Below are positions 29,041 to 62,577 of a DNA stretch of 64,000 bases, piece by piece. The stretch is from Staphylococcus phage PhiSepi-HH3. The notes beneath the pieces were generated by a model. It had not been told where the DNA came from. It ran no database searches and saw nothing but the letters and a program-made list of their open reading frames with translations. Position 1 is the first letter of the stretch. Each line of letters opens with the position of its first letter. The stretch is taken from the sequence record MT880872.1, one strand, 5' to 3'. Position numbers and translations under genes: made by a program.

Positions 29041-29481
29041 ATGGCAAAATTAAATTTAGACCGTGTAAAAGGTCACTACGTTGAAACAATTAAAGCTGAC
29101 AAAGAATACGAAAACGGTTCTTTAGTTGGTAAAGGTTTATTAGAAGATGGAGAAATTCGTCTTTACAAAGCTGCTGAAGCTACTGCTGAAAACTGCTTCT
29201 TAGTTTCTACTCCGGAACTTGATTTAGCTGCTAAAGCAAACGGTCATGGTTCAATCGACTTTGTTAACCCTAAAGGTTCAATCATGCGTGCTCATCAATT
29301 AGAAGTTGGAGATACATTTACAGTTGAACAAAAATTACATGGTACAGGTTTCGTTGCTGGTGAAGCTTTAACTGTTACTGATGGGAAATTCGCTAAAGGT
29401 GAAGGTGCATTCGTAGTTGAATATGTAACTACTATTGGTGCTGATCGCCGCCCTGCTTATTCAATTCGTAAAGTTAAGTAA
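29041..29481 (+). CDS. Putative head protein (decoration or scaffold-associated), 146 aa
   Basis: Strong RBS GGAGG. It sits between the protease and the capsid gene. Confidence 0.45.
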   Translation: MAKLNLDRVKGHYVETIKADKEYENGSLVGKGLLEDGEIRLYKAAEATAENCFLVSTPELDLAAKANGHGSIDFVNPKGSIMRAHQLEVGDTFTVEQKLHGTGFVAGEALTVTDGKFAKGEGAFVVEYVTTIGADRRPAYSIRKVK

Positions 29482-29519
29482 TAAATTATAATAACACAAA
29501 TGTATGGAGGATAACTTAA

Positions 29520-30521
29520 ATGCCTAAATTTAGTAATGAATTAAAAGAAGTTGCTATCCAAGCTGCTCATGGTGCAACTACTACTCAATTTTCAAATAAA
29601 GACTTATCGGACGCTGTTCGTAAAAAAATGATCGAGGAATTAGGTTCAGATACTTTAGATTATTCTACTTATCGCCGCCGCAAACATGATTTATTCGAAT
29701 TCATCGAAGAAACTGTTGCCCCTATCGTAAATGAACGCACTGCTGAAATTTTCGGTCAGTTCGCTGAATACAAAAATATCGCTTTCGGTGATCAAAACAA
29801 ATTCTTCATCGAAGATATTAAATTATTCCCTGTTGCTACTATCTCTACTGGTAACGGAAACGTAAAACGTCAACGTTTAGATAGTCAAGAATTAGTAGTA
29901 CCAATGCATACAATCGGTGCTGGTGTATACGAAGAGTTAGTTCGCTTTTTAGCTGGTCGTACTGATTGGGCTCGTTTAACTGCTCGTTTAGCTGAGTCAT
30001 TTGTAAATGATATCGCTCAACGTATTGGTGACGCTCTTTACAAATCAGTTGACTCTGTTGGTTCTACTTACAAAGCTAACGTTAGTGGTAGTAACAGTGA
30101 ACTTAAAACTAAAGTATTAGAAATCGCTGATCACGTTGAAGCTGCTAATGGTCAAGCAGTAATCGTTGGTACTAAAGCTGCTCTTCGTAAATTAAAGCCA
30201 GAAGATAGCTCAGACTTACAAAAAGGTGCTAAAAACGAAGTTGGTTACTTCGGTTTTGTTGATGGAGTTGAATGCATTGCTTTACCTCAATTCCACAAAG
30301 CTGGTACTGATGAGTTCGGTCTTAAAAACGATGTTATTTTCGTATTACCAAGCTCAGATGAAAAATTAGTTAAAGTTGTTCAAGACGGTCATTACATCGC
30401 TCGTGAAGAAGGCGGATCAGAAGGATATCGCACAGACTTACAAATGAGCTTAGACGTAATCACTCGTGTTGGTGTAGCTGTTGTTACTGCTGCTCGTTAT
30501 GGTGCTGTTGAATTAAGTTAA
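29520..30521 (+). CDS. Major capsid protein
   Basis: 333 aa with a strong RBS GGAGG. The position, and the hairpin terminator just downstream (30553-30585), are the classic signs. Confidence 0.7.
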   Translation: MPKFSNELKEVAIQAAHGATTTQFSNKDLSDAVRKKMIEELGSDTLDYSTYRRRKHDLFEFIEETVAPIVNERTAEIFGQFAEYKNIAFGDQNKFFIEDIKLFPVATISTGNGNVKRQRLDSQELVVPMHTIGAGVYEELVRFLAGRTDWARLTARLAESFVNDIAQRIGDALYKSVDSVGSTYKANVSGSNSELKTKVLEIADHVEAANGQAVIVGTKAALRKLKPEDSSDLQKGAKNEVGYFGFVDGVECIALPQFHKAGTDEFGLKNDVIFVLPSSDEKLVKVVQDGHYIAREEGGSEGYRTDLQMSLDVITRVGVAVVTAARYGAVELS

Positions 30522-30552
30522 GCTTAATATGATTAAAGTTTGCTCCCTATTA

Positions 30553-30585
30553 ATTTAGGGAGCTTATTTTATATGGAGAAAAAGG
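30553..30585 (+). terminator. Hairpin gctccct-attaattt-agggagc followed by ttatttta
   Basis: 7-bp stem directly after the capsid gene. Confidence 0.6.
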
Positions 30586-30595
30586 AGACATTTAA

Positions 30596-31147
30596 ATGGC
30601 TATTAAAAAAACTACAACTACTGAGAAATCTACTCAAAAAACTACTAAACCTACTGAAAAGAAAACAACTCGTACTGCTAAACCAAAGCGTAAAGAGGTT
30701 GATTTATCTCAATCAGTATTAGTTATTAATATGACTCAAGGTTCATTAACTTATGTAGCTAAAAAAGGTACAGGTTATTTAGAATTAAGTGAATACTTAG
30801 ATAGTGATTATTTAACTGTTGAAGAGTTAAAAATCATGAAAAGTTCAGCTAGAGGCATGTTTGATAAAGGTTGGTTGTTTGTTGATGATGAAGATGTAGT
30901 TGAATTTCTTGGAATTAAGAAACAAATGGACGCTATCTTATTACCTGATGAGTTAGATGACCTATTCGAACTTCCAGCAGATGAACTTAGAGAGCGATTA
31001 AAAAGCTTATCACCTTCAGTGAAAGAAACAGTTCATTTAGCTATGAAGAAAAAATATGAAGATGGTGAACTAGCAAACGCTCACGTTATTCGTGCTATCG
31101 AAGAGTCAGTGAATATTGATAATAACGTTTCAATTCTAAATATCTAG
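30596..31147 (+). CDS. Head-associated protein with a Lys/Thr-rich N-terminal tail (183 aa)
   Basis: RBS AAGGAGA. N-terminus MAIKKTTTTEKSTQKTTKPTEKK. Confidence 0.45.
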   Translation: MAIKKTTTTEKSTQKTTKPTEKKTTRTAKPKRKEVDLSQSVLVINMTQGSLTYVAKKGTGYLELSEYLDSDYLTVEELKIMKSSARGMFDKGWLFVDDEDVVEFLGIKKQMDAILLPDELDDLFELPADELRERLKSLSPSVKETVHLAMKKKYEDGELANAHVIRAIEESVNIDNNVSILNI

Positions 31148-31164
31148 TTGGGAGGCAAATTCTC

Positions 31165-31599
31165 TTGACAGAATTTACTTTAATTTATGACAAATTTTTA
31201 TCTAAACTAACAGATTTTTCTTTAGCGAGATTAGATAAAGACGTTTTAGAGTCAGATTTACAAGAACGGTTAATAACTGCTCTTTCAGATTTTGCACAGT
31301 TACCCGAAGAGAAAACTGAAGTTGATTTAAGTACAAAAACTTTTACTAATGGTCTAAGTGTAGAAGAACAAAATATCATCGCAACTTTAATGGTTATCAA
31401 TTATTTAGACAAATATATTTTGTCTGAAGATAATATGAGAATTCTATTAAACTCTAAAGACTATAAACAGTATTCACAAGCCGCTTTACTTAAAGAGCTT
31501 AAAGCTACTAAATCTGAATATCAATCAGATGTTGACGCTAAGCTTAATAGTTATAGCTTTAGACAAAAATTCCGAAAGAAAAAGAAAGATGAACAGTAA
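31165..31599 (+). CDS. Head-tail connector (gp6-like, DNA-packaging/head-tail adaptor)
   Basis: Position, size, and a pattern like LESDLQERLITALSDFAQ. Confidence 0.45.
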   Translation: MTEFTLIYDKFLSKLTDFSLARLDKDVLESDLQERLITALSDFAQLPEEKTEVDLSTKTFTNGLSVEEQNIIATLMVINYLDKYILSEDNMRILLNSKDYKQYSQAALLKELKATKSEYQSDVDAKLNSYSFRQKFRKKKKDEQ

Positions 31600-31906
31600 A
31601 TCTTATACTTTTTATCTCACGGAATTGAAAAATAGAGTTTTCAAAATATTGCCTTTATGTGAAGAAAAGAATGACTACATAGATAAGTATTTAGAGAATT
31701 TGATCATTGAACTCAAAGGGCTTCCTAAAGCATATCCTGAAGTGTTTGATAGTCAATCTGCTTGGTACGTTAGAGTGTTAAGCTCTTTATTTACTTTCTA
31801 TGAAGACTTTTCTATCGCAGAATTACATAGTGTTGATGGAGTTCAAAGAGTAAGACGAATTATTCTATCATTAGTAAATTTGATAGATAAGGAGGTAGGA
31901 CGTTAA
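31589..31906 (+). CDS. Head closure or neck protein (105 aa)
   Basis: Internal ATG at 31589. The track lists a longer overlapping version starting at 31529. Confidence 0.4.
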   Translation: MNSKSYTFYLTELKNRVFKILPLCEEKNDYIDKYLENLIIELKGLPKAYPEVFDSQSAWYVRVLSSLFTFYEDFSIAELHSVDGVQRVRRIILSLVNLIDKEVGR

Positions 31907-31909
31907 ATA

Positions 31910-32575
31910 ATGGACTACTTTGAAAGATATAAAAATATTAATATGCCTTATGGCACAGATTTAAGTTCACATGTCATTAACGCAAGTAAAGACAGTGCTT
32001 TGAGAACATTTCTCTCTTCCCCTACTCTATCTGATATTTATGTTGATAGTATTCCTACTCAGTCAGTTGTAAGTAATTATTCTGGTGACTTTTTTGAGCG
32101 TACGTTCTTATTTGAGCCAGACTCAGACTTAGCTAAAGTAGGTAATTATATTGAACATAGAGGCTATACATACTTAACTATGAAAAGTAATGATGATGAT
32201 ATTTATCCTAACCTACACGCTAAGTTATGCAATGAAGATTTTAAACTTCCATTAAAAATTACTAAGAAGAAGGTTTCTACTGGTCGTGGTGGTTACACTT
32301 ATGTTGATCAATTAGAGACCAAAGATATTCCTATTGTGGTTGATGTTAAAGGTTACTCAATTGCGGATAATGCTATCTTACCTTTAACTGAAGGCCGAGT
32401 AATTATCTATATGAAATACAGTAAGGAATACTTAGAAAAAATTAAACTTAACTATGAGTTTGAGTTATTTAATGATAGTTATAAAATCACTGATATTCAA
32501 ACAGATAACATAATTAATCATCAAGGTTATATTGTATTATCTGCACAGAAAGTAGTTGAAACAAATGCAACTTAG
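31910..32575 (+). CDS. Neck or tail-completion protein
   Basis: Position in the connector block. Confidence 0.4.
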   Translation: MDYFERYKNINMPYGTDLSSHVINASKDSALRTFLSSPTLSDIYVDSIPTQSVVSNYSGDFFERTFLFEPDSDLAKVGNYIEHRGYTYLTMKSNDDDIYPNLHAKLCNEDFKLPLKITKKKVSTGRGGYTYVDQLETKDIPIVVDVKGYSIADNAILPLTEGRVIIYMKYSKEYLEKIKLNYEFELFNDSYKITDIQTDNIINHQGYIVLSAQKVVETNAT

Positions 32576-33086
32576 ATATAAAACTTCTGGTCGTGGTGAT
32601 ATCTTACAGAAATTTATTAAGGTAATGGCAAATGATGAACACTTATTAAGATTGCTTTACTACAACCCTATTGATGAGAATGGCAATTATATAGAGTTCA
32701 CAGACGCTTCTTTACCTAATATCACTGAGATGGACGAAGAGAAAAAAGACCAAATAGTAAATGATTTGATTAGAACGTCTCAAAAGAGTGACGACATAAT
32801 CGAGATGAAAAAGACAGTTATTTTTGTATTTTATGGTAAATCGAGACCTAAGTATAACAATCATACTCTTGTAGACAGAGAGATTATTTTTATGATCCTA
32901 TCTCATAATGATTTCTCATTTGCTGATAGAATAGAGGAAATTTGTGATAGATTAGATACTTTGTTCGTTAATAAGCATATTGGTGGCATTGGTAGAACAA
33001 ACATCGGAATATCATTCCCTGTTGAAGCTCCAAAAGAATACCTTGCTTTTGAACAAAAATACACTATCACTGATAAGCGGATGTGA
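32556..33086 (+). CDS. Neck or tail-completion protein
   Basis: Position. Confidence 0.4.
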   Translation: MKQMQLRYKTSGRGDILQKFIKVMANDEHLLRLLYYNPIDENGNYIEFTDASLPNITEMDEEKKDQIVNDLIRTSQKSDDIIEMKKTVIFVFYGKSRPKYNNHTLVDREIIFMILSHNDFSFADRIEEICDRLDTLFVNKHIGGIGRTNIGISFPVEAPKEYLAFEQKYTITDKRM

Positions 33087-33091
33087 TTTAA

Positions 33092-33964
33092 ATGGAAGAG
33101 TTATTAGAAAATCTATTTGATGATCAGAGTATTCAAGATAAAGTTATCTTGAATTTGCCTATCGAAAGTCCATTTGGTGAATTAAAACCACTGAGTATTC
33201 ATGATTACATGCAACGACTCTCTTCTATTTCAGTAATATCTCTTAACAAGAAATACTTACTCGCTGAGTATGGTAAAGGTTATCAAGAAGAAACTGGTCA
33301 AACTGATAATGAAATTTTCACAATGTTGAAAGACTTGAATGAAAAATATTCATTATTCTACTTTTTAAGAGAGATGTTCCAAGACCTTCTCCACCACTAC
33401 ATTATTATAACCCGATACGTTAAGTTCTACGATTATCAATACGATAAGAAAAACCCTCAATCTAGAAAAGACATTGATGAAAATAGTGATGACGATACAC
33501 CTTTGAGTGAAAAGGAATTTACTGAGGCTATCTTAGAAAAATGTATTCAATTTGTATTTTCATTAGATGATGATCAATTTGAGCTTTATCGTAAATACAT
33601 ATTACAACTTCATGGACAATCTGAACCTAGAGCTTTCTTAAACCCTAAGCTTCAACGTAATGAAGAGAGATCTAAAGCTTCAAAGCTTAAAAAGAAGGAC
33701 TCAACGCCAACTTTATCTACTATGGTTACAAGTTGTGCAGTGTACATGGGCGTTGATTACTCAGATATTATGAAATGGAATGCTTTACAATTACAACATT
33801 CATTCCAACGAATTTCACTATTCATTCAAAATAACGCTACAACGTTGTTTGCTACTGTTACTTCTGAAGTCGATTTAGTTAATTGGTCAGAAAATATTAC
33901 TGACAATGAGAAAAAAGAAGATATGACTTTAGATACTTTCAGACAGAATGTAAGTGGAGTTTAG
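33092..33964 (+). CDS. Neck or tail-terminator-associated protein (290 aa)
   Basis: Position. Confidence 0.35.
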   Translation: MEELLENLFDDQSIQDKVILNLPIESPFGELKPLSIHDYMQRLSSISVISLNKKYLLAEYGKGYQEETGQTDNEIFTMLKDLNEKYSLFYFLREMFQDLLHHYIIITRYVKFYDYQYDKKNPQSRKDIDENSDDDTPLSEKEFTEAILEKCIQFVFSLDDDQFELYRKYILQLHGQSEPRAFLNPKLQRNEERSKASKLKKKDSTPTLSTMVTSCAVYMGVDYSDIMKWNALQLQHSFQRISLFIQNNATTLFATVTSEVDLVNWSENITDNEKKEDMTLDTFRQNVSGV

Positions 33965-34002
33965 TTAGAATATATATAAATTATTTTAGGAGGAATTGGA
34001 AT

Positions 34003-34794
34003 ATGCCTTTATATATCCAAGACACTGCGGACGCAGTATTAGAACGTAAATCGGACAAATTTGTTATCGCTACTGGTACAACTCAAACTGTTACTTTGAA
34101 ACAAAAAGTTGACGAAGAAACAGTTAAAGGCGGTATTGGTAACGCTGCTCAATTCACAATCAAATCTAACAAAGAGTTAGAAATCACTATGGAAGACGCT
34201 TTATTCAACTTCCAATGGTTAGCTGCTACTCAAGGTGTTAAAGTTGTTAACGACAAATTAGTTGTTAAACGTACTGAGGTTGCTGAAGTAGAAGAAGGTG
34301 GAAAAGTTACTTCTGTTAATTCTAAATTAGCTGGTGAGTTAGTTGTTATCGACACTTATGGTAAAAACGTTAAAGGTAAGTTCACTGCTGGTTCTGCAAC
34401 TATCTCTGACTTGTCTTCACAAGTTGGTAAAAACGTAACTATCGTTACAGAAGAAGAAGTTCAAGGTGAAAAAGTTTCTATTCGTGCTGACCGTTTCGCT
34501 GAAAAGTATCGTTTACAATTATTCACTTATGCTTATGACCAAGATACTGAAGCAATTGCAAAAGACGTATTCTTGACATTCGATAACGTTTCTCCATCTT
34601 CTGAGTTTGACTTAAAACTTAAGGCTGGTGATCCATTATCTCCAGAATTACAATTGAAAGCTACTGCAAACCCAAAAACTAAAGAAATTGGTTCTTGGAT
34701 GATTGTTGATCATAAAGAAGACGCTGGAGAAACAAATTCGGGTGCTGTTGTTGCTGGTAGAAGATCTGAAGAGTCAGGTTCACATTTAGGCTAA
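34003..34794 (+). CDS. Major tail protein
   Basis: 263 aa, strong RBS, with a terminator hairpin directly downstream and the tail chaperones following. Confidence 0.6.
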   Translation: MPLYIQDTADAVLERKSDKFVIATGTTQTVTLKQKVDEETVKGGIGNAAQFTIKSNKELEITMEDALFNFQWLAATQGVKVVNDKLVVKRTEVAEVEEGGKVTSVNSKLAGELVVIDTYGKNVKGKFTAGSATISDLSSQVGKNVTIVTEEEVQGEKVSIRADRFAEKYRLQLFTYAYDQDTEAIAKDVFLTFDNVSPSSEFDLKLKAGDPLSPELQLKATANPKTKEIGSWMIVDHKEDAGETNSGAVVAGRRSEESGSHLG

Positions 34795-34818
34795 TAATTT
34801 AGTCATAAGAGTGGGAGA

Positions 34819-34850
34819 TTAGTTTCTCCCCTCTTTTTTATTTATCCAAA
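34819..34850 (+). terminator. Hairpin gggaga-ttagtt-tctccc followed by ctcttttttattt
   Basis: Read directly, after the major tail protein gene. Confidence 0.6.
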
Positions 34851-34877
34851 TTTATAGAATAAAAGGAGAATTTTATC

Positions 34878-35435
34878 ATGAAAATAAACGACAATAACGA
34901 TAAAAATGTCGAACAAAATGCTGTTGTTGACTTAAAAAAGGTCTTAGAAATGGCTAAATCTTATGATGAAATTGAAAGATACACTTTATCAAACGGTGAA
35001 GACATTGAATTCTATCCCCACTTCTCTCGTACAAAGATTAAAGAAATCATTGAAGAGTATAAAGGATATTTAATTTCTGAAGATAAAGATGATATGAAAT
35101 TCATGGATATGGTTTCTAAAGATGATGTAAGCTTAGTCCTTTTCTGGTACTTCTTAGCTGTTAAAAAATTCACTCATTTTGGTGAGTCTATGAAACGTAT
35201 TAAGAAAGTTAAATCTTTAGCTCCTTATTACAATGCATTATTAGAAACGGGTATCTTAGAAGAAATTTGTAATGACGCTTTTGCTTATGAAGAGTTATCA
35301 AAAGTTACTGAAATGTTTGCAAAAGAAGCTGCAATTAATGTAACTGCTAATGAATTTGTAAACAAATATGAAGATGAAATTGAAGTAGCTCGTGAAAAAT
35401 TTGCTAACACTTATTTAAACAAGAGTGAAGATTAA
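34878..35435 (+). CDS. Tail assembly chaperone (gpG-like)
   Basis: Position upstream of the tape measure. Acidic, 185 aa. Confidence 0.5.
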   Translation: MKINDNNDKNVEQNAVVDLKKVLEMAKSYDEIERYTLSNGEDIEFYPHFSRTKIKEIIEEYKGYLISEDKDDMKFMDMVSKDDVSLVLFWYFLAVKKFTHFGESMKRIKKVKSLAPYYNALLETGILEEICNDAFAYEELSKVTEMFAKEAAINVTANEFVNKYEDEIEVAREKFANTYLNKSED

Positions 35436-35908
35436 TGCCTCATTTTAGTGATTTACAAAGCCTTAATAACTATGTACTTAGAGCAATAACTGAAGTAATG
35501 AGAAATGAAGTTGCTGACGCAGTTAGACAAGAATGGATAGCTATGATGGAAAAGAATGTGTATGGAACGTATCAACCCTGGTCATATGAACGTAGACATA
35601 AACAAGGTGGTTTAGCTGATCCAAGAAATATTCAAATCGTTTCAGAAAAAGTTGCTGCTGACTCTGCTGCTATCGTAATGGAGAACTTGACTAAAGGTCA
35701 AGGTTGGGATCATTACTATGGTGATTTAATCAATACGATGATTGAAAGTGCAGACGGTTTTGCTGGTAATTCAGCTTTAGGAATGCCTAAACGTCCTTAT
35801 ACTGAAGAAGCAGTTGATTTCATGACAAAAGGAATTGGTAGAAATACTATATTGGACGCTCTCACATCAGGTTTAGCTAGAAGAGGTATTAATGTCAATA
35901 TTAAATAG
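35435..35908 (+). CDS. Tail assembly protein (gpT-like partner), separate ORF in the -1 frame
   Basis: TAATG overlap with the preceding gene. Confidence 0.45.
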   Translation: MPHFSDLQSLNNYVLRAITEVMRNEVADAVRQEWIAMMEKNVYGTYQPWSYERRHKQGGLADPRNIQIVSEKVAADSAAIVMENLTKGQGWDHYYGDLINTMIESADGFAGNSALGMPKRPYTEEAVDFMTKGIGRNTILDALTSGLARRGINVNIK

Positions 35909-35923
35909 AAAGTAGGAATTAGT

Positions 35924-36940
35924 ATGGCAATCGAGAAAAACATGCTGAGAGAAAGAGCCAAAAAGCTTCCGACAATTACAGATGAAATGTGGGAAAAGGT
36001 ACATCCTATTTACAAGGAACTTTTAAGTGAGTATTTAGGTTCAGTAGATTTATCGAGAGACACTAAAAAACAATATACTTCAGCATTGAAACAATTTGGT
36101 TGGTTTGTTGCTGATAGTTTAAACAATAAACCCCTATTCAAATTAAAGAAACGTGACGCATTGCGTTATATGAACTATTTAAGAGAAGACCGTAAGATGT
36201 CATCATCTGGAATTAACTTAAAGAAATCTGCTGTATCTGCTTTCTGTCAATGGATAGAAAACTATATCGCTGATGACTATGAAGATGAAAATGGAGACCT
36301 AGTTTTTGAAACATTTCGTAATTTCATGACAGGCTTACCACCAGTTGTAAAAAATCAAGTATACGATAAGAAGAAAGTTACATTCGAAGAGTATCAAGAA
36401 ATGATGAAAGCTCTAAGAAGTGATGAAGATTATTTAGGTATGGCTTGGTTAGCTACTGCATTTAATGTTGGTGCAAGACGCAGCGAAATTATACAATTTA
36501 AAACATCTTTATTCGATCATGAGTGGAATGAAGAAGGAAACTTCTTAATGTCTCATAACGTTCGTGGTAAAGGTCGTGGTGAAGATGGTAAGATACTTCA
36601 ATTTATGATCAATGATGAAGCACTTAAATATATGAAGCTTTGGGTAGAAAAACGTGGATATGAAGACGAATACATCTTTACAGTTGGAAATGAGAACACT
36701 CATAGGCAAATGAGTAAGTCTTGGGCTGATTATTTCTGCGAGCATACTCTATCTCATATTTTAGGAAGACGTGTTAACCCTCATATCTTTAAAGCTAGTT
36801 GTGTAACCTATCTATTAGAAGTTAAAAAGGTTGATATTAAACACGTATCTAAATTAGTGGCACATCATGAGTCAGTTGAAACTACTCAAATATATGATTT
36901 AAGAGACTCTGAAGAAGAGAGAAATTCTATCTTTAGTTAA
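35924..36940 (+). CDS. Tyrosine-recombinase-like protein embedded in the tail module; paralogue of the 2308..3360 gene
   Basis: Box I VGARRSEI, box II HIFKASCVTY (K in place of the second Arg), and Tyr in ETTQIYD. It has an N-terminal SAM-like region. Confidence 0.6.
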   Translation: MAIEKNMLRERAKKLPTITDEMWEKVHPIYKELLSEYLGSVDLSRDTKKQYTSALKQFGWFVADSLNNKPLFKLKKRDALRYMNYLREDRKMSSSGINLKKSAVSAFCQWIENYIADDYEDENGDLVFETFRNFMTGLPPVVKNQVYDKKKVTFEEYQEMMKALRSDEDYLGMAWLATAFNVGARRSEIIQFKTSLFDHEWNEEGNFLMSHNVRGKGRGEDGKILQFMINDEALKYMKLWVEKRGYEDEYIFTVGNENTHRQMSKSWADYFCEHTLSHILGRRVNPHIFKASCVTYLLEVKKVDIKHVSKLVAHHESVETTQIYDLRDSEEERNSIFS

Positions 36941-37036
36941 TCTAGTTTTGAATTCTTGTGGGAATATTTAGTTCTCATAAGACTTGAATACTAGATTTTT
37001 TATAATGATTTCGAGAATAAAAGGAGTGAATATAGC

Positions 37037-40000
37037 GTGGCAAGTGATTTTAATATAGGTATATTATCTACCTTAGAGATAGACTCTAGCTCCTCAAGAA
37101 AGAAGATTAACGACACACTTAAAAATATTGAAGCAAATATTAATAGCATTAAAGCAGACTTAGAAGTTTCAGATACAAAGAAATCAGAAAATAATGCTAT
37201 AAAAAGTGCAAACAACGTAATCAGAAACATCAATTCAAACGGTAATTTAAAGAAATTAAATGTTGAACTAGATGTAAACTTAACAAAAAGTAGACAAAAC
37301 ATTCAAAGAGCATTATCTACTCTATCAAAAGATTTTAAGAATAAGAAAATTGATATTGAAGTTAATGCTAAAGCTAATAAAAATTCAATCGGACAAGTTA
37401 AGAATTCTATTTCTAAAGGTGCAAGTCAGCCACTAGAAATTAAAGAGTCCCCTAGTAGTAGAAGCACTAGTAGAGATATTAAAGAACAGCAGTCTTTAAT
37501 GACAGGTTTAGCAAATTCTTATAAGAACTTAGATGATTTAACAAGAGCTTTAAATACAAGTACATTTGAAGGGCTTAGAAAAACTGTAAAAGAAATTAAG
37601 AACGCAGATAATTCTCTTAAAAGTTATCAAGTTACTTTAGAACGTGTTAACCAAGAAGGTAAAAAATTAGGCTCTCAAAGATTTGATTATACCCCTTCTG
37701 CAAATGGTTTGAAGTTAAACAAAACTCAATTAACTGATCAAACAGATAAAGCTCGTAAAGAAGAAAATGCTGCTATTAATAAATTATTAGAAAATGAAGT
37801 TTCTAAGTATGATCGTTTATTGAATAAAGGTAAAATTGATATTAAACAACATCAAACTTTACTTCAAACTCTTAGACAAATTACTAATGAGAAATCAAAA
37901 GCTAACCAATTTAATAGAACTGATTTCAATAGAGTAGCAAAAGCTGCTGCTGATGAAGCAAAAGAATATCAATATCAAAATGATATGCTTCGAAAGAAAT
38001 TAGCTTTAACTTCTCAAATTGAGCGTATTGAAAACAGAATGGCTGCTACAATTGATAAGCAACAAACAAATGCTTTGAAAAATCAATTGAATTCTTTAGG
38101 TAATAATAGAACACCATTCGGTAAAGAAGCAGCTTTCCATATGAACCAAATTCAAGACAAGGTTCGTCAAATCTCTGCTGAAGCTGAAAGAGCAACTAGA
38201 ACTCAGTTAAGTTTTGTTGATCAATTCAGAGAAGCAATGACAAAATTCCCAGTTTGGATGGGTGCTACTACCCTATTCTTCGGTGCCATAAATGGTGCTA
38301 AAGAAATGCTTGATGTAATTACTGAAATTGATGGAAAAATGATTACTCTTGCAAAAGTTACTGGTGATGACAATGCACTTCAACAAACATTTATTGACGC
38401 AAATAATGCTGCTTCTCAATTCGGACAGACATTAGGAAGCGTATTAGATGTATATGCAGAATTCGCTAGACAAGGTGTTAAAGGTAATGAGTTATCTCAA
38501 TTCTCAAATGCAGCATTAATTGCTGCTAACGTTGGTGAGATTGACGCTAAACAAGCTTCTGAATATTTAACTTCTATGTCTGCTCAGTGGGAAACGACTG
38601 GAAACCAAGCTATGAGACAAGTTGACTCACTCAACGAAGTTTCCAATAAATATGCTACAACTGTTGAAAAGTTAGCACAAGGTCAAGCAAAAGCTGGCTC
38701 TACTGCTAAATCAATGGGACTTACTTTTGATGAAACTAATGGTATTATTGGTGCATTAACAGCTAAGACTAAGCAATCTGGGGACGAAATTGGTAACTTT
38801 ATGAAAGCCACTTTACCTAAACTTTATAGTGGTAAAGGTAAATCAACTATTGAAGGCTTAGGCATTAGTATGAAAGATGAAAATGGACAATTAAAATCTG
38901 CCATTTCTCTTTTAGAAGAAGTTTCTCAGAAAACTAAAAACTTAGAAAAAGACCAAAAAGCCGCTGTTATAAATGGCTTGGGTGGAACATACCACTACCA
39001 ACGTATGCAAGTATTATTAGATGATTTATCTAAAACAGATGGCTTATATAAACAAATTAAAGAAAGTTCCGAAAGTTCAGCTGGCTCTGCATTACAAGAG
39101 AATGCAAAATACATGGAGTCAATTGAAGCTAAAGTTAACCAAGCAAAAACAGCATTCGAACAATTCGCATTAGCTGTTGGTGAAACATTTGCTAAATCAG
39201 GAATGCTTGATGGTATCAGAATGGTTACTCAACTTTTAACTGGTTTAACTCATGGAATTACTGAATTAGGCACAACTGCTCCGATTTTCGGCATGGTTGG
39301 TGGTGCTGCCTCATTAATGAGTAAGAATGTTAGAAGTGGTTTTGAAGGTGCTAGAAGTAGTGTTGCTAATTATATTACTGAGGTAAATAAATTAGCTAAA
39401 GTTAACAATGCTGCTGGTCAAGTTGTTGGACTTCAAAAAGTTCAAACTGGTACAGCTTCACAACTTCAGTTTAATAAAAATGGTGAATATGATAAAGCTG
39501 CTTCACAAGCAAAGGCTGCTGAACAAGCAACTTACCAATTCTCTAAAGCTCAAAAAGATGTATCAGCTAGTGCTATGATCGCTTCAGGTGCAATCAACAA
39601 AACAACTGTGGCTACCACAGCAAGCACTGTTGCCACTCGTGCTGCTACACTTGCAGTTAATGGTTTAAAATTAGCCTTTAGAGGCTTGTTGGCTGCTACT
39701 GGTGTCGGGTTAGCAATAACTGGTGTTTCTTTTGTACTGGAAAAAGTTGTAGGTAGTTTTAATGCTGCAAGTCAAGCTGCTGAACAATATAAACAAAAAC
39801 AAGAGCAAACGAAGCAAGCAATAGCTTCTATGAGTAATGGTGAAATTAATTCACTTATTAGTAGTTACGATAAACTACAACAAAAAATGAATTCTGGTAG
39901 TGCATTTAATACAGCGGAAGCTGAGAAATATAAAGAAGTAACAAGTCAATTAGCTAATATATTCCCCGATTTAGTTACTGGTGAAAACCGTTATGGTAAG

Positions 40001-43000
40001 GAAATGGCCGGTAATAAAGAAGTAATGAAACAGAAAATTGAGTTAATCAAGCAAGAAATGGAGCTTGAAAGACAAAAGAATGCTATCAAACAAAAAGAAG
40101 AGCAAGACGCTTACATCAAAGAACAAGATAGCTTAGCTAAGAAAAACAGAGGTCAAAAATGGTATCAACTTGGTCAAACACCAGAGTTGAAACTTCAGGA
40201 ACAAGCACGTCCTACTACTGTTTCTGATAATAGTAACATTAACAAAATTAATGCCACTATCCAAAAAGTGAAGAGTCAAGCCCAAGCTGAAAAAGCATTA
40301 GAACAAGTTGATAAGCAACTTGCTCAATCTCAAACTAAGAATAGACAAAATGAAGTTCAGCACTTACAAAAAGTTAGACAAGCTTTACAAGATTATATTA
40401 CTAAAACTGGTCAAGCAAATCAGGCAACAAGAGCTGCGGTATTAACTGCACAGCAACAATTCACTAACCAGATAGCAACAATGAAAAAGCTTGGTACTAC
40501 TGGTCAACAAGTGATGACTACTATTTCTAACTCAGTTGCGAAAACAGCAAAGTCTGGTAAAGCTGCTCAAGCAACCTTCAAGTCGTTTGAAACCTCATTA
40601 GTTAAAAGCTCTTCATTCAAAAGCAAGATGGCTAGTTATGAAGCTTCTGTTAAGAAATTTAAAAATGCTGCTAACCAATCTGCTAAAATTGCTGCTCTTA
40701 AAGACGTAGAACGTGATTACTCTAAAGTTGCTAAAGGTATTATGCAAGCGGCAAAAGCGGCAAACATGAGTAAATCTCAAATGAAAGATTTGAAAAAATC
40801 TCTTCAACAAAATATACAAGCAGAAACAGGCTTTAGAGCTTCAGTAAGTAAAGCTGGTAAAGTTACTATTGATCAATCTAAGAAAATCAAACAGAATACT
40901 GCTGAAACAAGACGTAACTCAAGTGCTAAATTACAAAATGCTGACGCTTCAGACCAAGCTTCTGAAGAAAATAAAGAGTTAGCAGACTCAATGCGTGCTG
41001 GTATTGAAAGTTCTCAATTACTTGGAAAAGCGATGGGAGAATTACAATCTCAAGGAACACTTAGTACAGAAACTTTAATTGAATTAACTGAGAAGTATGG
41101 AGACGAAATTTTAGCTGTTGCTGGAGATCAGGAAGCTTTAAGTAACTTCATCATGCAAAAGCAAAATGAAGAAACTGATAACTACAACAAAAACCTTAAA
41201 ACTAAATTAGAAAACTCTTCATCATACTATAAGGCGGTAGCTGGAGCTGACTCTGCCCTATCCAACTACTTAATGGAAAACTATGGTATTGATACTAAAA
41301 ACTATAAGAGTTTAACAGAAGTCAAAGCTAAAATTACAGACCTTTACTACAATGGTTCAGCTGAAGAACAAGCTAAAGTAGTAGACGCTATCGCAAAAGC
41401 TTACCATATTGACTTATCTAACTATGGCTCTCTGAATGAGAAAAAAGAAGCATTAGAGAACCAATTGATGAAAATCTTAGGTAGTAAGTGGAAAAAATAT
41501 ATTGGTAGCGTAGCTAAGGATATGAAATCTCTTGGTGTTGACGCTGGTGAAGTTGGAGCAGATGGTTTTGATGACAGTAAAATGTTCAATCCGGGTGCTC
41601 TTATCGGTGCTAACAATTTCCAAAACGTTTCTAACCTAAGTAATATCAGTAATGTATTCAACTCACTTAATGGTGCATTTAATGAAGCTAAGAATGAAGC
41701 TGCTGGTGTTAGTAGAGGCTTAGATGACGCTGCTAGTGGCTTAAAAGATGTTGGTGACAGTGCTGGCTCAGCTGGTAGTGGTTTAGGTAAAACTGCTAAA
41801 GGCGCGGATAAAGCGTCTGACAGTTTAGATGGTACTAATAAAGAATTAGAAAAAACTAAAGAAAAAGCTGAAGAAGCTGGTGTCACAGTTAAACAACTTT
41901 ATAAGCAATTTACAGTTACTACTTATGTTGCTGATAAACTAAGTATGGCTTTAGATAAAATTAATAATAAGTTAGAGAAACAAAAACTTTTAACTGAAAA
42001 ATACGCAACTTGGTCAAGCAGTTATCGTAACTCACTTAAAGCAGAAAATAAATTGCTCGATGAAAAGACCGCTAAGATTAAAAAACAAATCGAGTCAATG
42101 AAAGAACAAATCGCTCAAGGTAAAGTTATTGAGTATGGTTTAGTTGGTAAAGATATTAATGTTCCTTACTATGAATATACTGCAAATAATTTAGATGATG
42201 GAGAAACTGGTCGTATTTCTCGATATACCGGTAATTCAACTCAAGCTAAGGTTTGGAATTTCTTTAAATCTAAAGGGTTATCTGATCATGCTGTTGCGGG
42301 TATCATGGGTAATATGGAACGTGAGTCTAGATTTAAACCGGGAGCTCAAGAACAAGGCGGTACTGGTATTGGTTTAGTACAACTTTCATTTGGGCGTGCA
42401 AATAATTTAAGAAATTATGCTGCTAGAAGAGGAAAAAGCTGGAAAGACTTAAATACTCAACTTGACTTCATTTGGAAAGAATTAAATACTACTGAAGTTA
42501 ATGCTTTACGAGGACTTAAATCAGCTACTTCAGTTATTGGTGCAGCAAACTCTTTCCAAAGATTATATGAACGTGCTGGTGTTGTAGCACAAGGAGAACG
42601 TAATGCGGCAGCTAAAAAGTATTACAGACAATTTAAAGGTACTAATGGTTCATCTGGCTTCCTAAGTGGTGGCGTGGTCGCTGGAACAAATGGTAAACCA
42701 CTTACTTCAGATAGAAACGCTTATATCTTAGATAGACAATTCGGACGATATAATGGTGGTGGTGTCCATCACGGAAGAGATATCACGAGTGCTACTATTA
42801 ACGGATCACCTATTAAAGCTGCACGTTCAGGTATAGTTACTTTTAAAGGATGGACTGGTGGTGGTAATACACTATCTATATTTGATGGTAAAAATACTTA
42901 TACATACATGCATATGAAGAACCCGGCAAGAGTGGTAAAAGGACAACGAGTTAAAGCTGGACAAATTGTTGGTAACGTTGGTACTACGCATGATAGAAGA

Positions 43001-43531
43001 TTAGGTGGCTTCTCTACTGGCCCTCACCTTCACGTACAAGTAAACTTAGGAAAAACTCCTTCTGGTACATTTATGAACACTTTCAATGGTGCTCATAGAG
43101 CAGTCGATCCTGTTAAATATGGATATACTAGAGTTTCTGGTGGCGGTAGTCTAAACTTAGGCTCGCTAACTTCTGGACATTCAGCGATGTCTGGTTCTAT
43201 CAGTGCTGCAATGGCTGAAGACTTAAATGAAGCTGAACAAGAGCGTTTAAACAAAATTGAACAAGCAATTAACGCACATAATAAAGCTGAAGAAATGAAG
43301 CAAAAAGTTGATGAGCTTAGAAAAACGTTAATGGATAAACAGCTTGAAGAAGTTCAAACTGCTAAAGAAAAAAGTGAAAATCTTTATAACATCCAAAAAT
43401 CTCACGTAGAAGAATATGATCATTGGAGAACATTACAAGAAGCACGATCTGCTAAATTAGAATACGAATTAAACAAAATCGAATTCGAAAAAGGTAGAAA
43501 TACTAAAGAATGGCGTAATAAAAATAAATAA
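37037..43531 (+). CDS. Tail tape measure protein with lysozyme-like (tail lysozyme, GIMGNMERES) and M23 peptidase (HHGRD..GPHLHVQV) domains
   Basis: 2164 aa, coiled-coil-rich, with a hydrophobic central segment and a GTG start with RBS. Confidence 0.9.
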   Translation: MASDFNIGILSTLEIDSSSSRKKINDTLKNIEANINSIKADLEVSDTKKSENNAIKSANNVIRNINSNGNLKKLNVELDVNLTKSRQNIQRALSTLSKDFKNKKIDIEVNAKANKNSIGQVKNSISKGASQPLEIKESPSSRSTSRDIKEQQSLMTGLANSYKNLDDLTRALNTSTFEGLRKTVKEIKNADNSLKSYQVTLERVNQEGKKLGSQRFDYTPSANGLKLNKTQLTDQTDKARKEENAAINKLLENEVSKYDRLLNKGKIDIKQHQTLLQTLRQITNEKSKANQFNRTDFNRVAKAAADEAKEYQYQNDMLRKKLALTSQIERIENRMAATIDKQQTNALKNQLNSLGNNRTPFGKEAAFHMNQIQDKVRQISAEAERATRTQLSFVDQFREAMTKFPVWMGATTLFFGAINGAKEMLDVITEIDGKMITLAKVTGDDNALQQTFIDANNAASQFGQTLGSVLDVYAEFARQGVKGNELSQFSNAALIAANVGEIDAKQASEYLTSMSAQWETTGNQAMRQVDSLNEVSNKYATTVEKLAQGQAKAGSTAKSMGLTFDETNGIIGALTAKTKQSGDEIGNFMKATLPKLYSGKGKSTIEGLGISMKDENGQLKSAISLLEEVSQKTKNLEKDQKAAVINGLGGTYHYQRMQVLLDDLSKTDGLYKQIKESSESSAGSALQENAKYMESIEAKVNQAKTAFEQFALAVGETFAKSGMLDGIRMVTQLLTGLTHGITELGTTAPIFGMVGGAASLMSKNVRSGFEGARSSVANYITEVNKLAKVNNAAGQVVGLQKVQTGTASQLQFNKNGEYDKAASQAKAAEQATYQFSKAQKDVSASAMIASGAINKTTVATTASTVATRAATLAVNGLKLAFRGLLAATGVGLAITGVSFVLEKVVGSFNAASQAAEQYKQKQEQTKQAIASMSNGEINSLISSYDKLQQKMNSGSAFNTAEAEKYKEVTSQLANIFPDLVTGENRYGKEMAGNKEVMKQKIELIKQEMELERQKNAIKQKEEQDAYIKEQDSLAKKNRGQKWYQLGQTPELKLQEQARPTTVSDNSNINKINATIQKVKSQAQAEKALEQVDKQLAQSQTKNRQNEVQHLQKVRQALQDYITKTGQANQATRAAVLTAQQQFTNQIATMKKLGTTGQQVMTTISNSVAKTAKSGKAAQATFKSFETSLVKSSSFKSKMASYEASVKKFKNAANQSAKIAALKDVERDYSKVAKGIMQAAKAANMSKSQMKDLKKSLQQNIQAETGFRASVSKAGKVTIDQSKKIKQNTAETRRNSSAKLQNADASDQASEENKELADSMRAGIESSQLLGKAMGELQSQGTLSTETLIELTEKYGDEILAVAGDQEALSNFIMQKQNEETDNYNKNLKTKLENSSSYYKAVAGADSALSNYLMENYGIDTKNYKSLTEVKAKITDLYYNGSAEEQAKVVDAIAKAYHIDLSNYGSLNEKKEALENQLMKILGSKWKKYIGSVAKDMKSLGVDAGEVGADGFDDSKMFNPGALIGANNFQNVSNLSNISNVFNSLNGAFNEAKNEAAGVSRGLDDAASGLKDVGDSAGSAGSGLGKTAKGADKASDSLDGTNKELEKTKEKAEEAGVTVKQLYKQFTVTTYVADKLSMALDKINNKLEKQKLLTEKYATWSSSYRNSLKAENKLLDEKTAKIKKQIESMKEQIAQGKVIEYGLVGKDINVPYYEYTANNLDDGETGRISRYTGNSTQAKVWNFFKSKGLSDHAVAGIMGNMERESRFKPGAQEQGGTGIGLVQLSFGRANNLRNYAARRGKSWKDLNTQLDFIWKELNTTEVNALRGLKSATSVIGAANSFQRLYERAGVVAQGERNAAAKKYYRQFKGTNGSSGFLSGGVVAGTNGKPLTSDRNAYILDRQFGRYNGGGVHHGRDITSATINGSPIKAARSGIVTFKGWTGGGNTLSIFDGKNTYTYMHMKNPARVVKGQRVKAGQIVGNVGTTHDRRLGGFSTGPHLHVQVNLGKTPSGTFMNTFNGAHRAVDPVKYGYTRVSGGGSLNLGSLTSGHSAMSGSISAAMAEDLNEAEQERLNKIEQAINAHNKAEEMKQKVDELRKTLMDKQLEEVQTAKEKSENLYNIQKSHVEEYDHWRTLQEARSAKLEYELNKIEFEKGRNTKEWRNKNK

Positions 43532-43597
43532 CTTCAAGCTTCTAGACAACTTGAAGTTAATTTCGAAGACTCAAAAATACAATATATTAATAAAGCA

Positions 43598-45310: not shown

Positions 45311-45331
45311 GATTGTGAGGAGATGAGATAA

Positions 45332-47413: not shown

Positions 47414-47415
47414 AG

Positions 47416-47445
47416 AGTCACTTTTGTGGCTCTTTTATATTTGAG
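47416..47445 (+). terminator. Hairpin agagtcac-tttt-gtggctct followed by tttatattt
   Basis: One mismatch in the stem. Confidence 0.4.
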
Positions 47446-47473
47446 TTTTTTAAGAATATAAGGAGGAAACAAA

Positions 47474-55519: not shown

Positions 55520-55521
55520 AA

Positions 55522-55896
55522 ATGGAAATCATAAAAACTTATGACTCACTCATTAACTTAGAAAATGGAGATTATTACACGGATCGCTATGTATTAGCTG
55601 TTCCATACACTTCTATTGGTGAGGATGGAAAAATATTCGGTGATTACTCTTTTGGCTCAACCTTTCACACGGTTGTTCCTTGTGCTACTTTAATTATTGA
55701 CGAAAATACGCATAATCAATTAGAAAGTTTAAGACTTAAAATTATTGATGGCGTATATAAATTAGTAGCACCAGATGGTTATAAATTCATAACTGTTGAA
55801 GAAAATGAAAGCGAAGAAGACCGTGAAATTCGTGAATTAGAAGAAATGTTAGCAAAATTAAGATCGAAAAAAAGGAGTTTAAATAATAATGAATAA
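55522..55896 (+). CDS. Hypothetical tail-associated protein (124 aa)
   Basis: RBS GGAGG. Start overlaps the preceding gene. Confidence 0.45.
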   Translation: MEIIKTYDSLINLENGDYYTDRYVLAVPYTSIGEDGKIFGDYSFGSTFHTVVPCATLIIDENTHNQLESLRLKIIDGVYKLVAPDGYKFITVEENESEEDREIRELEEMLAKLRSKKRSLNNNE

Positions 55897-56056
55897 AAAT
55901 GATTTAAATTTACAAATACAAAGATTACAAGCACAAAATGAGAAGTTATCAACTGTTGTTGGAAATCAAGCAAATTATATTGCTGAGCTTGAAGTGACGA
56001 ATGAAATGTTGTTATCTCAAATTCAAAATAATGATGAACAAGAAGCTCAAGGTTAA
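55889..56056 (+). CDS. Small coiled-coil protein (55 aa: MNKNDLNLQIQRLQAQNEKLSTVVGNQANYIAELEVTNEMLLSQIQNNDEQEAQG)
   Basis: Not in the track because it is short. RBS AAGGAG 8 nt upstream, with a terminator following. Confidence 0.45.
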   Translation: MNKNDLNLQIQRLQAQNEKLSTVVGNQANYIAELEVTNEMLLSQIQNNDEQEAQG

Positions 56057-56075
56057 TACCTTGAGTTTTCTTATG
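56047..56075 (+). terminator. Hairpin ctcaagg-ttaata-ccttgag followed by ttttctt
   Basis: Read directly. Confidence 0.55.
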
Positions 56076-56097
56076 TAGAATACAAGGAGTGTTTTAA

Positions 56098-58767: not shown

Positions 58768-58810
58768 TCTCTAAGGTGGCTATTTATTAGTCACCTATCT
58801 TCTTTATAAG

Positions 58811-59769: not shown

Positions 59770-59790
59770 ATTTAAAGGAGATAAAATATA

Positions 59791-60120: not shown

Positions 60121-60123
60121 TCT

Positions 60124-60155
60124 AAGCCGAGTTATCTATTAACTCGGTTTTAATT
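60124..60155 (+). terminator. Hairpin ccgagtt-atctatt-aactcgg followed by ttttaatt
   Basis: Read directly. Confidence 0.5.
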
Positions 60156-60171
60156 AATAAGGAGTGCAATA

Positions 60172-62565: not shown

Positions 62566-62577
62566 CATATAAAAATC

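Follow-up and report, generated by a model that had tools for sequence, protein, structure and literature searches.

An Xer-like recombinase gene upstream of the tape measure gene in SPbeta-like phages: a YomM orthologue with a probable DNA role in lytic growth

Results

A YomM orthologue in the tail module

We analysed a stretch of 64,000 nucleotides from Staphylococcus phage PhiSepi-HH3 (MT880872.1), referred to here as the window. Judged by its sequence, the open reading frame at 35924..36940 is the orthologue of Bacillus phage SPbeta YomM. Its product probably does a DNA job during lytic growth, since it is not the phage's integrase, is the best conserved protein in these phages and is also found in lytic relatives. 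The genes and elements around it are as follows.

34003..34794, + strand: YomU-like tail tube protein (29% identity to SPbeta YomU; solved YomU homologues are tail tube proteins)
34813..34830: terminator-like hairpin after the tail tube gene (terminator scan)
34878..35435, + strand: 185-aa protein of unknown function at the YomO position (phrog_7383; 31% identity to the same-position Perkons gene; gene order)
35435..35908, + strand: 157-aa protein of unknown function at the YomN position (phrog_16506; synteny)
35924..36940, + strand: YomM orthologue, predicted two-domain Xer-like tyrosine recombinase, 338 aa (Pfam, PHROG, identity to SPbeta YomM, AlphaFold2/Foldseek, residue conservation)
36939..36997, + strand: imperfect hairpin starting at the YomM stop codon (26-nt arms, 5-7 nt loop, T-run after it)
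37037..45310, + strand: tape measure gene (YomI/CwlP-like giant protein)

The yomM gene runs in the same direction as the tail genes, is closely spaced with them and has the tape measure gene immediately downstream. The first-pass annotation of this DNA had found such a place unusual for an integrase-family gene, and the location was confirmed: the gene sits between the tail tube, YomO-position and YomN-position genes and the tape measure gene (37037..). From its position, the product of 34878..35435 may be a tail assembly chaperone. The start of 35435..35908 overlaps the upstream stop (ATGA), and no PDB homologue of its product was found. A nonsense change at 43529 splits the tape measure gene of the window into 37037..43531 and 43598..45310.

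The genome had also been taken for a lytic-type one, which is wrong. Over the aligned parts the window is 99.98-100% identical to KT429160 (Staphylococcus phage SPbeta-like), and on this identity the phage is classed as a near-identical relative of that temperate phage. A SprA-like serine integrase, the phage's real integrase, is encoded just outside the window, and SPbeta excision requires SprA. The structural and lysis genes of SPbeta form a single operon, which is transcribed by YonO and starts upstream of yonK. The YonO-dependent genes number 37, and yomM may be among them.

Active site and fold

YomM scored 47.5 bits against the Phage_integrase model (PF00589; cut-off 27.1) and was also above the Pfam threshold for Phage_int_SAM_4. 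Its catalytic positions are R185, E188, K223, H287, K290, H315 and Y324, arranged as R185..E188..K223..H287-I-F-K290..H315..ETTQIY324. When YomM was aligned with XerA of Pyrococcus and XerD of E. coli, its lysine fell exactly on the arginine of the H-x-x-R box (Arg-II). Both unusual motifs that had been read in this protein and in the one at 2308..3360 are real: H-x-F-K is found as H287-I-F-K290 and H259-S-F-K262, and ETTQ(I/R)Y as ETTQIY324 and ETTQRY294.

Residue conservation was counted over 189 distinct YomM relatives. Arg-I, Glu, Lys-beta and His-II were each present in 189/189, the tyrosine nucleophile in 188/189 and His-III in 186/189. Six of the seven catalytic residues are therefore canonical and invariant or nearly so, while Arg-II is mostly lysine (182/189, with arginine in the other 7/189). 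Lysine is found at this position in the SPbeta-like clade, whereas the 949 and Tsamsa proteins and more distant clades retain the canonical H-x-x-R arginine.

An AlphaFold2 model of the YomM orthologue (mean pLDDT 84.6) matched XerA, IntI, Cre, Tn1549 Int, XerH and lambda Int in Foldseek with E values of 1e-10 to 1e-7. XerA, IntI, Cre and XerH were the top matches, and MrpR was absent among the matches listed. The predicted fold is that of a normal XerA/Cre/IntI-like two-domain recombinase, made up of a core-binding and a catalytic domain but lacking an arm-binding domain. The core-binding domain is preceded by a conserved N-terminal extension that bears an acidic-aromatic motif.

Xer-type recombinases are the best matches of YomM in both sequence and structure, with catalytic residues that align one to one. 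The simple Xer proteins (archaeal XerA, XerC/XerD, XerH, XerS) have the same two-domain architecture free of an arm domain. YomM differs from them in the lysine at Arg-II, in being encoded in a phage late operon and in that no dif-like site was found. It reached 69 of 220 bits for the NCBIfam XerA equivalog, 59 of 335 for XerC and 43 of 330 for XerD (score and cut-off). With scores so far under the cut-offs and no dif-like site, we rejected equivalog status for all three. Identity as an integron integrase was likewise rejected, as YomM scored 28 bits with the IntI model (cut-off 265) and no recurring, cassette-bounding hairpins were found between the cargo genes.

Cre is a simple tyrosine recombinase of phage P1 with a non-integrative role, the cyclisation of P1 DNA and dimer resolution. 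Like YomM it is phage-encoded, and the two folds match by Foldseek. The role of Cre is tied to a plasmid prophage, whereas the window phage integrates via a serine recombinase, and no lox-like site for YomM was found.

Conservation and gene order among relatives

Orthologues of the same length and position (behind YomU-YomO-YomN, ahead of the tape measure gene) were found in several phages. Identity to the window protein was 57% for SPbeta YomM, 61% for Geobacillus E3 gp28, 59% for Psychrobacillus Perkons ORF195, 35% for Lactococcus 949 ORF131 and 34% for Bacillus Tsamsa gp227. In a genome-wide comparison of the Staphylococcus phage with SPbeta, YomM was the most conserved protein of all (56.7% identity), ahead of the large ribonucleotide reductase subunit (51.5%) and DNA polymerase (41.6%). 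The serine integrase (30%) and the tail tube protein (29%) were far less conserved in the same comparison. We found no demonstrated function in the literature for any of these five orthologues. A literature search for yomM and B. subtilis returned no mention, and the papers on phiL47 and on cheese-whey phages leave the recombinase undiscussed.

The order YomU-YomO-YomN-recombinase is preserved down to 32% identity, and orthologues occupy the same position in lytic lactococcal phages (phiL47, 949 group). In Staphylococcus, Mammaliicoccus, 949 and Tsamsa phages the yomM gene is directly upstream of the tape measure gene. It is still upstream of it, behind inserted cargo, in most of 80 related viral contigs. 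The gap between the two genes is 52-96 bp in Staphylococcus-type phages, whereas in Bacillus-type phages they are split by 0.5-7.2 kb of variable cargo, which includes MazF, PemK, Arc and ribbon-helix-helix genes. More distant homologues, at 24-28% identity and not assumed to be functionally equivalent, come last in the late and lysis block of 6ec, Maenad and vipetofem and lie amid small genes of unknown function in Basilisk.

Target sites and hairpins

Searches for a DNA target of YomM gave no candidate. No dif-like site was found in the Staphylococcus or the Bacillus genome at up to 7 mismatches, nor was a Xer-type palindrome common to both. Comparison of the non-coding DNA of the two genomes, and of that close to yomM in a set of 19 non-redundant loci, brought up only ribosome-binding sites and low-complexity words as conserved. 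An ordinary integrase would have all its catalytic residues intact and an attP nearby; here Arg-II is lysine and no attP-like repeats were found near 35924..36940. We rejected a phage integrase role on the basis of this lack of attP-like repeats, the serine integrase encoded elsewhere, the late tail operon and the orthologues in lytic phages.

Inverted and direct repeats were searched for around the fibre genes in 30000..64000, and only imperfect AT-rich matches at chance level were obtained. With no convincing inverted repeats flanking a segment in this region, an identity as a FimB/Rci-like DNA invertase was rejected.

The hairpin at 36939..36997 carries TTGAA on both arms, which produces a G.G mismatch. 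It folds with a z-score of -5.2, and in 13 relatives 90.9% of cells were paired as compared with 60.4% in shuffles. In the same set, 18 of the 22 pairs had changed on both sides, G-U pairs were tolerated, and the + strand was the more stable one in 11/13 sequences. A second copy was detected in the window:

22126..22186, + strand: second TTGAA/TTGAA hairpin (custom scan; covariance model R1, 36.3 bits, E 7e-5)

This copy is part of the 1.7 kb of non-coding DNA that precede the packaging genes, and in a Mammaliicoccus phage the corresponding position also bears a copy. The loci searched in SPbeta, 949 and Tsamsa encode YomM but lack the TTGAA hairpin, and cargo-rich B. subtilis phages carry a different one. 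Neither the hairpin nor the window as a whole had a match in Rfam. Because of its covariation, G-U tolerance and sense-strand stability, its second copy in a non-coding leader and its absence from the loci searched in SPbeta, 949 and Tsamsa, we read the hairpin as a probable RNA element and rejected its assignment as a recombination site.

What YomM may do

The function that we favour, at about even probability, is that of an active enzyme, recombinase or nickase, that would play a late DNA role in the lytic cycle, most likely the resolution or processing of replicated DNA. YomM would be produced late, alongside the structural genes, and as a DNA breaking-rejoining enzyme would act on phage DNA in the lytic cycle and not in integration. 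Most likely it would resolve or process replicated phage DNA in a site-specific way at around the time of packaging. With lysine at Arg-II, as in the SPbeta-like clade, cleavage and strand exchange should remain possible, while religation should be slowed, giving a longer-lived covalent 3'-phosphotyrosyl intermediate. [quoted passage not shown] The first-pass annotation had offered three options, namely a structural or assembly adaptation of the fold, an inverter of tail-fibre segments, and a resolvase for replication or packaging; on the present comparisons it is the resolvase that appears to survive.

Alternatively, YomM could be a DNA-binding regulator that does not recombine, controlling late or tail genes or acting on the downstream hairpin region. 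MrpR, the master repressor of SPbeta, is a catalytically dead recombinase fold that does not recombine (PMC10516654). A repressor of the same fold thus exists in the same phage family, and a conserved structured element lies directly 3' of the yomM gene. However, MrpR keeps 3/7 catalytic residues, whereas the catalytic positions of YomM, including Tyr and Lys-beta, are invariant or nearly so (n=189), and the loci searched in SPbeta, 949 and Tsamsa have the YomM protein without the hairpin. This makes a regulator unlikely, though it deserves some weight. We consider it decidedly unlikely that YomM is a virion-delivered enzyme, packaged or co-ejected with the tape measure protein to circularise the incoming genome or protect its ends. 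Cyclisation of P1 DNA by Cre and the virion-packaged topoisomerase IB of poxviruses provide analogies, and such delivery would suit a late gene that adjoins the tape measure gene, the conserved N-terminal extension with its acidic-aromatic motif and a lysine at Arg-II that favours a long-lived covalent complex. On the other side, the annotation of 949 gives ORF131 as a recombinase and the neighbouring proteins as structural, and solved PDB chains contain no YomM homologue although they include a YomU-homologous tail tube protein. Nor was a lox-like site found, and in more distant relatives the gene is away from the tail genes. That YomM, made late, does not turn over as a recombinase but stays covalently or tightly bound to phage DNA, travels with the genome beside the tape measure protein into the next cell and circularises or protects the incoming DNA there is improbable; the lysine at Arg-II would then help through slower religation. 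If true, a tyrosine-recombinase-derived pilot or end protein would be common to temperate SPbeta-like and lytic 949-like phages.

Database records name the protein a 'site-specific integrase', and a 2026 paper on Perkons proposed an 'arsenal of integrases', several such genes being present in each of Perkons, E3 and Tsamsa. That YomM is a spare or alternative integrase, used at other attachment sites or in other hosts, is nevertheless very unlikely. Same-position orthologues occur in lytic 949-group phages, the gene belongs to the late structural operon, and it comes without attP, arm-binding domain or adjacent excisionase. Only the serine integrase has been seen acting in Perkons and SPbeta, and YomM is conserved far above the real integrases of these genomes, unlike a host-range function. 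We give even less credence to YomM as a cassette-capture recombinase, with the downstream hairpin as an attC-like folded single-strand site and the junction as a platform for accessory genes. The 0.5-7.2 kb of variable cargo after yomM in Bacillus-type relatives and the strand specificity and conserved mismatch of the hairpin would fit this model. However, no recurring hairpins were found between the cargo genes of E3, SPbeta, Goe14, Perkons and BUCT082, hairpin-bearing phages have no cargo, cargo-rich B. subtilis phages have a different hairpin, and the integron integrase score is far below its cut-off (28 vs 265 bits). The hot spot can be explained by homologous recombination between the conserved flanking genes, with no need for a recombinase. 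That the fold has been adapted to a structural or assembly role, such as that of a tape-measure chaperone without DNA chemistry, is equally improbable, even though the slot before the tape measure gene is the usual place of a chaperone gene. A catalytic set that is invariant or nearly so in 189 sequences makes a purely structural role unlikely; in addition, the chaperone-like positions are already taken by the YomO and YomN genes, up to 7 kb separates the yomM and tape measure genes in relatives, and no homologue is found among solved PDB chains. Least credible of all is that YomM inverts tail-fibre or host-range segments in a site-specific manner. Its tail-region location and the 949 orthologue's weak NCBIfam similarity to tyrosine-type DNA invertases speak for it, but the idea is unsupported by the repeat searches in 30000..64000, where inverted repeats around the fibre genes were no better than chance, and the gene is kept in phages with unrelated fibre modules.

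Some observations also count against a late role of YomM in processing replicated DNA. The phage already encodes a RusA-type junction resolvase, so it is not evident why a second resolving enzyme would be needed. Searches for dif-like sites, shared Xer-type palindromes and conserved non-coding DNA yielded no target site. The high conservation of YomM could reflect a conserved host partner and not phage DNA, and MrpR shows that in this phage family the fold has been reused for DNA binding alone.

Databases label the yomM gene as an integrase and recent literature as a spare integrase, and the comparisons made here argue against both. The gene is fixed within the late structural operon of a large group of long-tailed Firmicutes phages, lytic ones included, under a constraint that exceeds that on polymerase, ribonucleotide reductase or any virion protein. 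If a site-specific recombinase is indeed needed for lytic growth or virion infectivity, this would be a DNA-handling step that has not been described in this type of tailed phage. The genetics of SPbeta are accessible enough to put the question to a direct test. 949-like phages would be misclassified if the number of 'integrases' were taken as a sign of a temperate lifestyle. The natural Arg-II-to-Lys family also lends itself, as it stands, to work on how the covalent intermediate is controlled.

Recombinase-fold genes in the left arm

The first-pass annotation had named three recombinase-like ORFs, at 35924..36940, 2308..3360 and 1..707, and all are present as described. The last two belong to the following group in the left arm.

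1..707, - strand: MrpR (YopR)-like master repressor (first 235 of 334 aa)
716..1999, - strand: YopQ orthologue, ParB/DndB-like (Pfam DndB, phrog_5732; 29% identity to SPbeta YopQ)
2308..3360, - strand: YopP orthologue, 350 aa, distant YomM paralogue (23% identity)

The ORF at 1..707 had been noted as a possible third copy of the recombinase. It matched Pfam MrpR_N_CB (PF22822; E 1.8e-22) and phrog_5830 (E 2.6e-92) and is 25% identical to SPbeta YopR. We assign it by these matches as the MrpR orthologue, whose tyrosine recombinase fold has a degenerate active site and is predicted to bind DNA. The suspected degenerate fold, with no Arg at the box I position, was thus borne out, while its identity turned out to be that of a known repressor. 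MrpR and YomM share fold and phage family, but MrpR has lost four of the seven catalytic residues and YomM retains all the positions; an MrpR-type repressor identity for YomM was rejected for this reason.

The suspected paralogue at 2308..3360 was confirmed as the YopP orthologue. It passes the Phage_integrase cut-off of 27.1 with 38.9 bits and has the motif string R172..K201..H259-S-F-K262..H285..ETTQRY294. YopP and YomM are paralogues with lysine at Arg-II in common (K262 in YopP), and H-S-F-K was found in 4/4 aligned YopP members, including those of the 949 and Tsamsa groups. Unlike YomM, YopP has no Glu at Arg-I+3 and evolves much faster (29% vs 57% identity between the Staphylococcus phage and SPbeta). 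Its gene, part of the yopMNOPQR operon, is located in the early or lysogeny region, beside a ParB-like gene. The gene order MrpR-YopQ-YopP in the window matches that of SPbeta, where the operon with yopP, yopQ and mrpR has been described (PMC8612738).

Phage identity and recombinase-like ORFs

A 4-kb query around 35924..36940 matched Staphylococcus phage SPbeta-like (KT429160 / NC_029119, 127.7 kb) at 100% identity, and 'SPbeta-like 2' of S. haemolyticus at 99.7%. Over the full window length, two insertion-sequence events and eight small changes account for all differences from KT429160. Just outside the window the phage encodes a 512-aa SprA-like serine integrase with a DNA-binding partner, as well as a RusA resolvase. 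The phage is temperate and carries this integrase, so the 'apparently lytic-type genome' of the first-pass annotation was a wrong description.

The three recombinase-like ORFs of that annotation (35924..36940, 2308..3360 and 1..707) were present at their coordinates, and whole-genome comparison with Bacillus phage SPbeta gave the following orthologies.

Window ORFs and their SPbeta counterparts
35924..36940 (+), 338 aa: YomM, 56.7% identity; above the Pfam Phage_integrase threshold, N-terminal SAM-like core-binding domain
2308..3360, 350 aa: YopP, 29% identity; above the Pfam Phage_integrase threshold, N-terminal SAM-like core-binding domain
716..1999: YopQ, 29% identity
1..707 (partial): YopR (MrpR), 25% identity; Pfam match to MrpR_N_CB (E 1.8e-22)

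The assignments to YomM, YopP and MrpR are secure. MrpR has been characterised by experiment as the SPbeta master repressor; its crystal structure shows a tyrosine recombinase fold with three of the seven catalytic residues left and no recombination (PMC10516654). The conserved yopM-yopR operon includes the genes for YopP and YopQ, which are described solely by a XerC-type and a ParB-like domain, respectively (PMC8612738).

Catalytic residues were placed by aligning the proteins with solved chains of XerA and XerD, and also jointly with Cre and XerD; the XerD part of the joint alignment was consistent with the solved-chain alignment. The positions are R185, E188, K223, H287, K290, H315 and Y324 in the YomM orthologue, and R172, K201, H259, K262, H285 and Y294 in the YopP orthologue. 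The proposed non-canonical box was borne out: in both proteins Lys aligns with the Arg of H-x-x-R, and ETTQ(I/R)Y closes the motif. The absence of the box I Arg from 1..707 was likewise confirmed. H-S-F-K was found in every YopP relative aligned (four members, those of the 949 and Tsamsa groups included).

YopP-type recombinases also occur in lytic phages of the 949 group and in phages of the Tsamsa group (148..1167 and 3911..4927 in the relatives' loci L016 and L017). In 949 this is the record's first gene, beside an exonuclease gene; in phage Izhevsk it adjoins a gene annotated 'replication initiation by nicking'.

Fold and conservation of catalytic positions in YomM

An AlphaFold2 model of the 35924..36940 product (mean pLDDT 84.6) was an ordinary two-domain recombinase, with XerA, IntI, Cre, Tn1549 Int, XerH and lambda Int as top Foldseek matches. 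The nearest NCBIfam models were XerA, XerC and XerD, at scores far under their cut-offs. By these comparisons the protein has a Xer-like architecture, yet it is not a Xer equivalog. The family is small, with 437 matches at E <= 1e-3 and 30 at E <= 1e-30 among 1.84 billion representative proteins.

Arg-I, Glu, Lys-beta and His-II did not vary in any of 189 distinct family members; 186 of them have His-III and 188 have the Tyr nucleophile. At the Arg-II position 182 carry Lys and seven carry Arg: one SPbeta-like protein (P0049) and those of 949, Tsamsa, 6ec, Maenad, vipetofem and Basilisk. YomM also topped the protein identities between the Staphylococcus and Bacillus (SPbeta) phages (56.7%), above the large ribonucleotide reductase subunit (51.5%), Sak4 (48%), DNA polymerase (41.6%), helicase (32%) and serine integrase (30%); structural proteins matched over at least 60% of their length were all at 29% or less. 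Such strict retention of the catalytic residues argues that YomM still cleaves and rejoins DNA, and the sequence evidence points strongly to an active enzyme. [quoted passage not shown]

Genomic context and possible role of YomM

The giant tape measure gene follows immediately after the yomM-type gene in Staphylococcus, Mammaliicoccus, lactococcal 949 and Bacillus Tsamsa phages. Among 80 related viral contigs the gap between the two genes spanned 52-96 bp for most phages of the Staphylococcus type. In those of the Bacillus type it measured 546-7204 bp and is filled by variable cargo, such as yomL, yomK and yomJ in SPbeta or the MazF, PemK and Arc-like genes of E3. A 32%-identical homologue in an unrelated assembly keeps the order YomU (tube)-YomO-YomN followed by the recombinase. 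In SPbeta, YonO transcribes the genes for structure and lysis as a single operon beginning upstream of yonK, and the 37 YonO-dependent genes may include yomM. YomM-type and YopP-type genes are both present in phiL47 (949 group), a large lytic phage with clear plaques (PMC3888941). More distant homologues (24-28% identity) come last in the late and lysis block in siphophages of 80-95 kb such as 6ec, Maenad and vipetofem. We take these siphophages to be lytic, and no argument rests on them.

It is well supported that YomM is not the integrase of the phage and is not needed for lysogeny only. The Perkons orthologue, ORF195, was counted among 'multiple integrases' in a 2026 paper, in which the serine integrase alone carries out integration and a spare role for the others is speculation (PMC13245101). 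From the gene position and the SPbeta late operon, we infer that YomM acts late on phage DNA; our guess is that it serves resolution or processing for packaging, or is delivered with the virion. The gene is already known and annotated; a literature search for yomM jointly with B. subtilis found no paper.

Inversion of tail-fibre segments had been suggested earlier, and a search for recombination sites at the fibre genes (30000..64000) found no flanking repeats, inverted or direct, better than chance. No dif-like site was found in the genomes of the window phage and SPbeta with up to 7 mismatches allowed, and no Xer-type palindrome was common to the Staphylococcus and Bacillus phage genomes. 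Conserved non-coding DNA was found neither between these two genomes nor, across 19 non-redundant loci, near yomM. The lack of a target candidate from these searches is what most weakens an enzymatic model for YomM.

As an observation in its own right, the yomM/tape-measure junction is an accessory-gene hot spot in Bacillus-type SPbeta-like phages (80 IMG/VR loci). Inserts of 0.5-7.2 kb include toxin-antitoxin-like and repressor-like genes (relatives' loci L002 9994..12998, L004 9991..16822, L007, L008 and L009). The junction is without cargo in Staphylococcus, Mammaliicoccus, 949 and Tsamsa phages.

A hairpin class, proposed RNA elements of late transcription

Hairpin copies in the window
36939..36997, late-gene strand: 26-nt arms, begins at the yomM stop codon, followed by a T-run
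22126..22186, late-gene strand: second copy, found by covariance model in the non-coding leader that precedes the packaging genes

Related hairpins lie 3' of the yomM-type gene in E3, in Mammaliicoccus phages and in numerous uncultured relatives. Across 13 aligned sequences, paired cells made up 90.9%, versus 60.4% in shuffles and 31-51% with partners slid, and 18 of the 22 pairs had changed on both sides. The core TGA of a (T/C)TGA(A/G) pentamer, mostly TTGAA, is kept on both arms, and a G.G mismatch is therefore preserved in every aligned sequence. In 11 of the 13 the sense strand had a more stable fold than its complement; relatives do not conserve the T-run. The covariance model placed a further copy at the place equivalent to 22126..22186 in a Mammaliicoccus phage, and did not find the class in the SPbeta, 949 and Tsamsa loci searched; Rfam gave no match. 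Given the covarying stem, the more stable sense strand, the second copy in the leader and the absence from the SPbeta, 949 and Tsamsa loci searched, we do not read the hairpin as a YomM recombination site. Our reading is that these hairpins are RNA elements formed on the sense strand of the late transcript; they could serve attenuation, processing or stability.

Staphylococcus and Mammaliicoccus SPbeta-like phages carry at least two copies of this class per genome (further coordinates: 2180..2239 and 3461..3506 in the relative's locus L102). B. subtilis-type relatives have a different element 3' of yomM (L007 7021..7068; L009 6996..7043; L002 10391..10445), in which alternative left arms, AAAATCCCTC and AAGATTCCTC, are each able to pair with GAGGGATTTT; it could switch between two structures.

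Other features of the window

The 1.7-kb stretch 21691..23384, from the YonJ-like exonuclease gene to the packaging genes, contains ORFs of at most 78 aa and gave no Rfam match. Mammaliicoccus phage phi36 has two tRNA genes in the corresponding region, and in SPbeta an unannotated non-coding RNA is located shortly after the YonO late promoter (PMC5467207). The stretch may be a long structured leader or non-coding RNA.

Compared with KT429160, a C-to-T change at 43529 turns a Gln codon into TAA and divides the tape measure gene (2757 aa) into two ORFs, 37037..43531 and 43598..45310; it may reflect a tail-defective phage copy or a sequencing error. Two extra bases at 24956..24957 leave the large terminase gene (24253..26061) as one intact ORF, and one extra base at 29876 does the same for the major capsid gene (29520..30521); both are split in the public record. 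A 1557-bp insertion at 15042..16598, not present in KT429160 and with a 357-aa transposase ORF (15149..16222, minus strand), splits a RecD2-like 'exonuclease V' gene into 14220..15056 and 16536..18065. The IS3 copy of KT429160 is missing from the window at about 62590.

With up to 3 mismatches allowed, there are 17 copies of a 20-bp repeat, TTATTATATTTTATTTCTTA, versus 0.25 expected (2029..29494; e.g. 3376, 8365, 9435, 9644, 18113), mostly between early-region genes. It is the positional counterpart of the SPbeta repeated element (SPBRE), which MrpR binds in SPbeta, and may serve the MrpR-like repressor as its operator or belong to early promoters.
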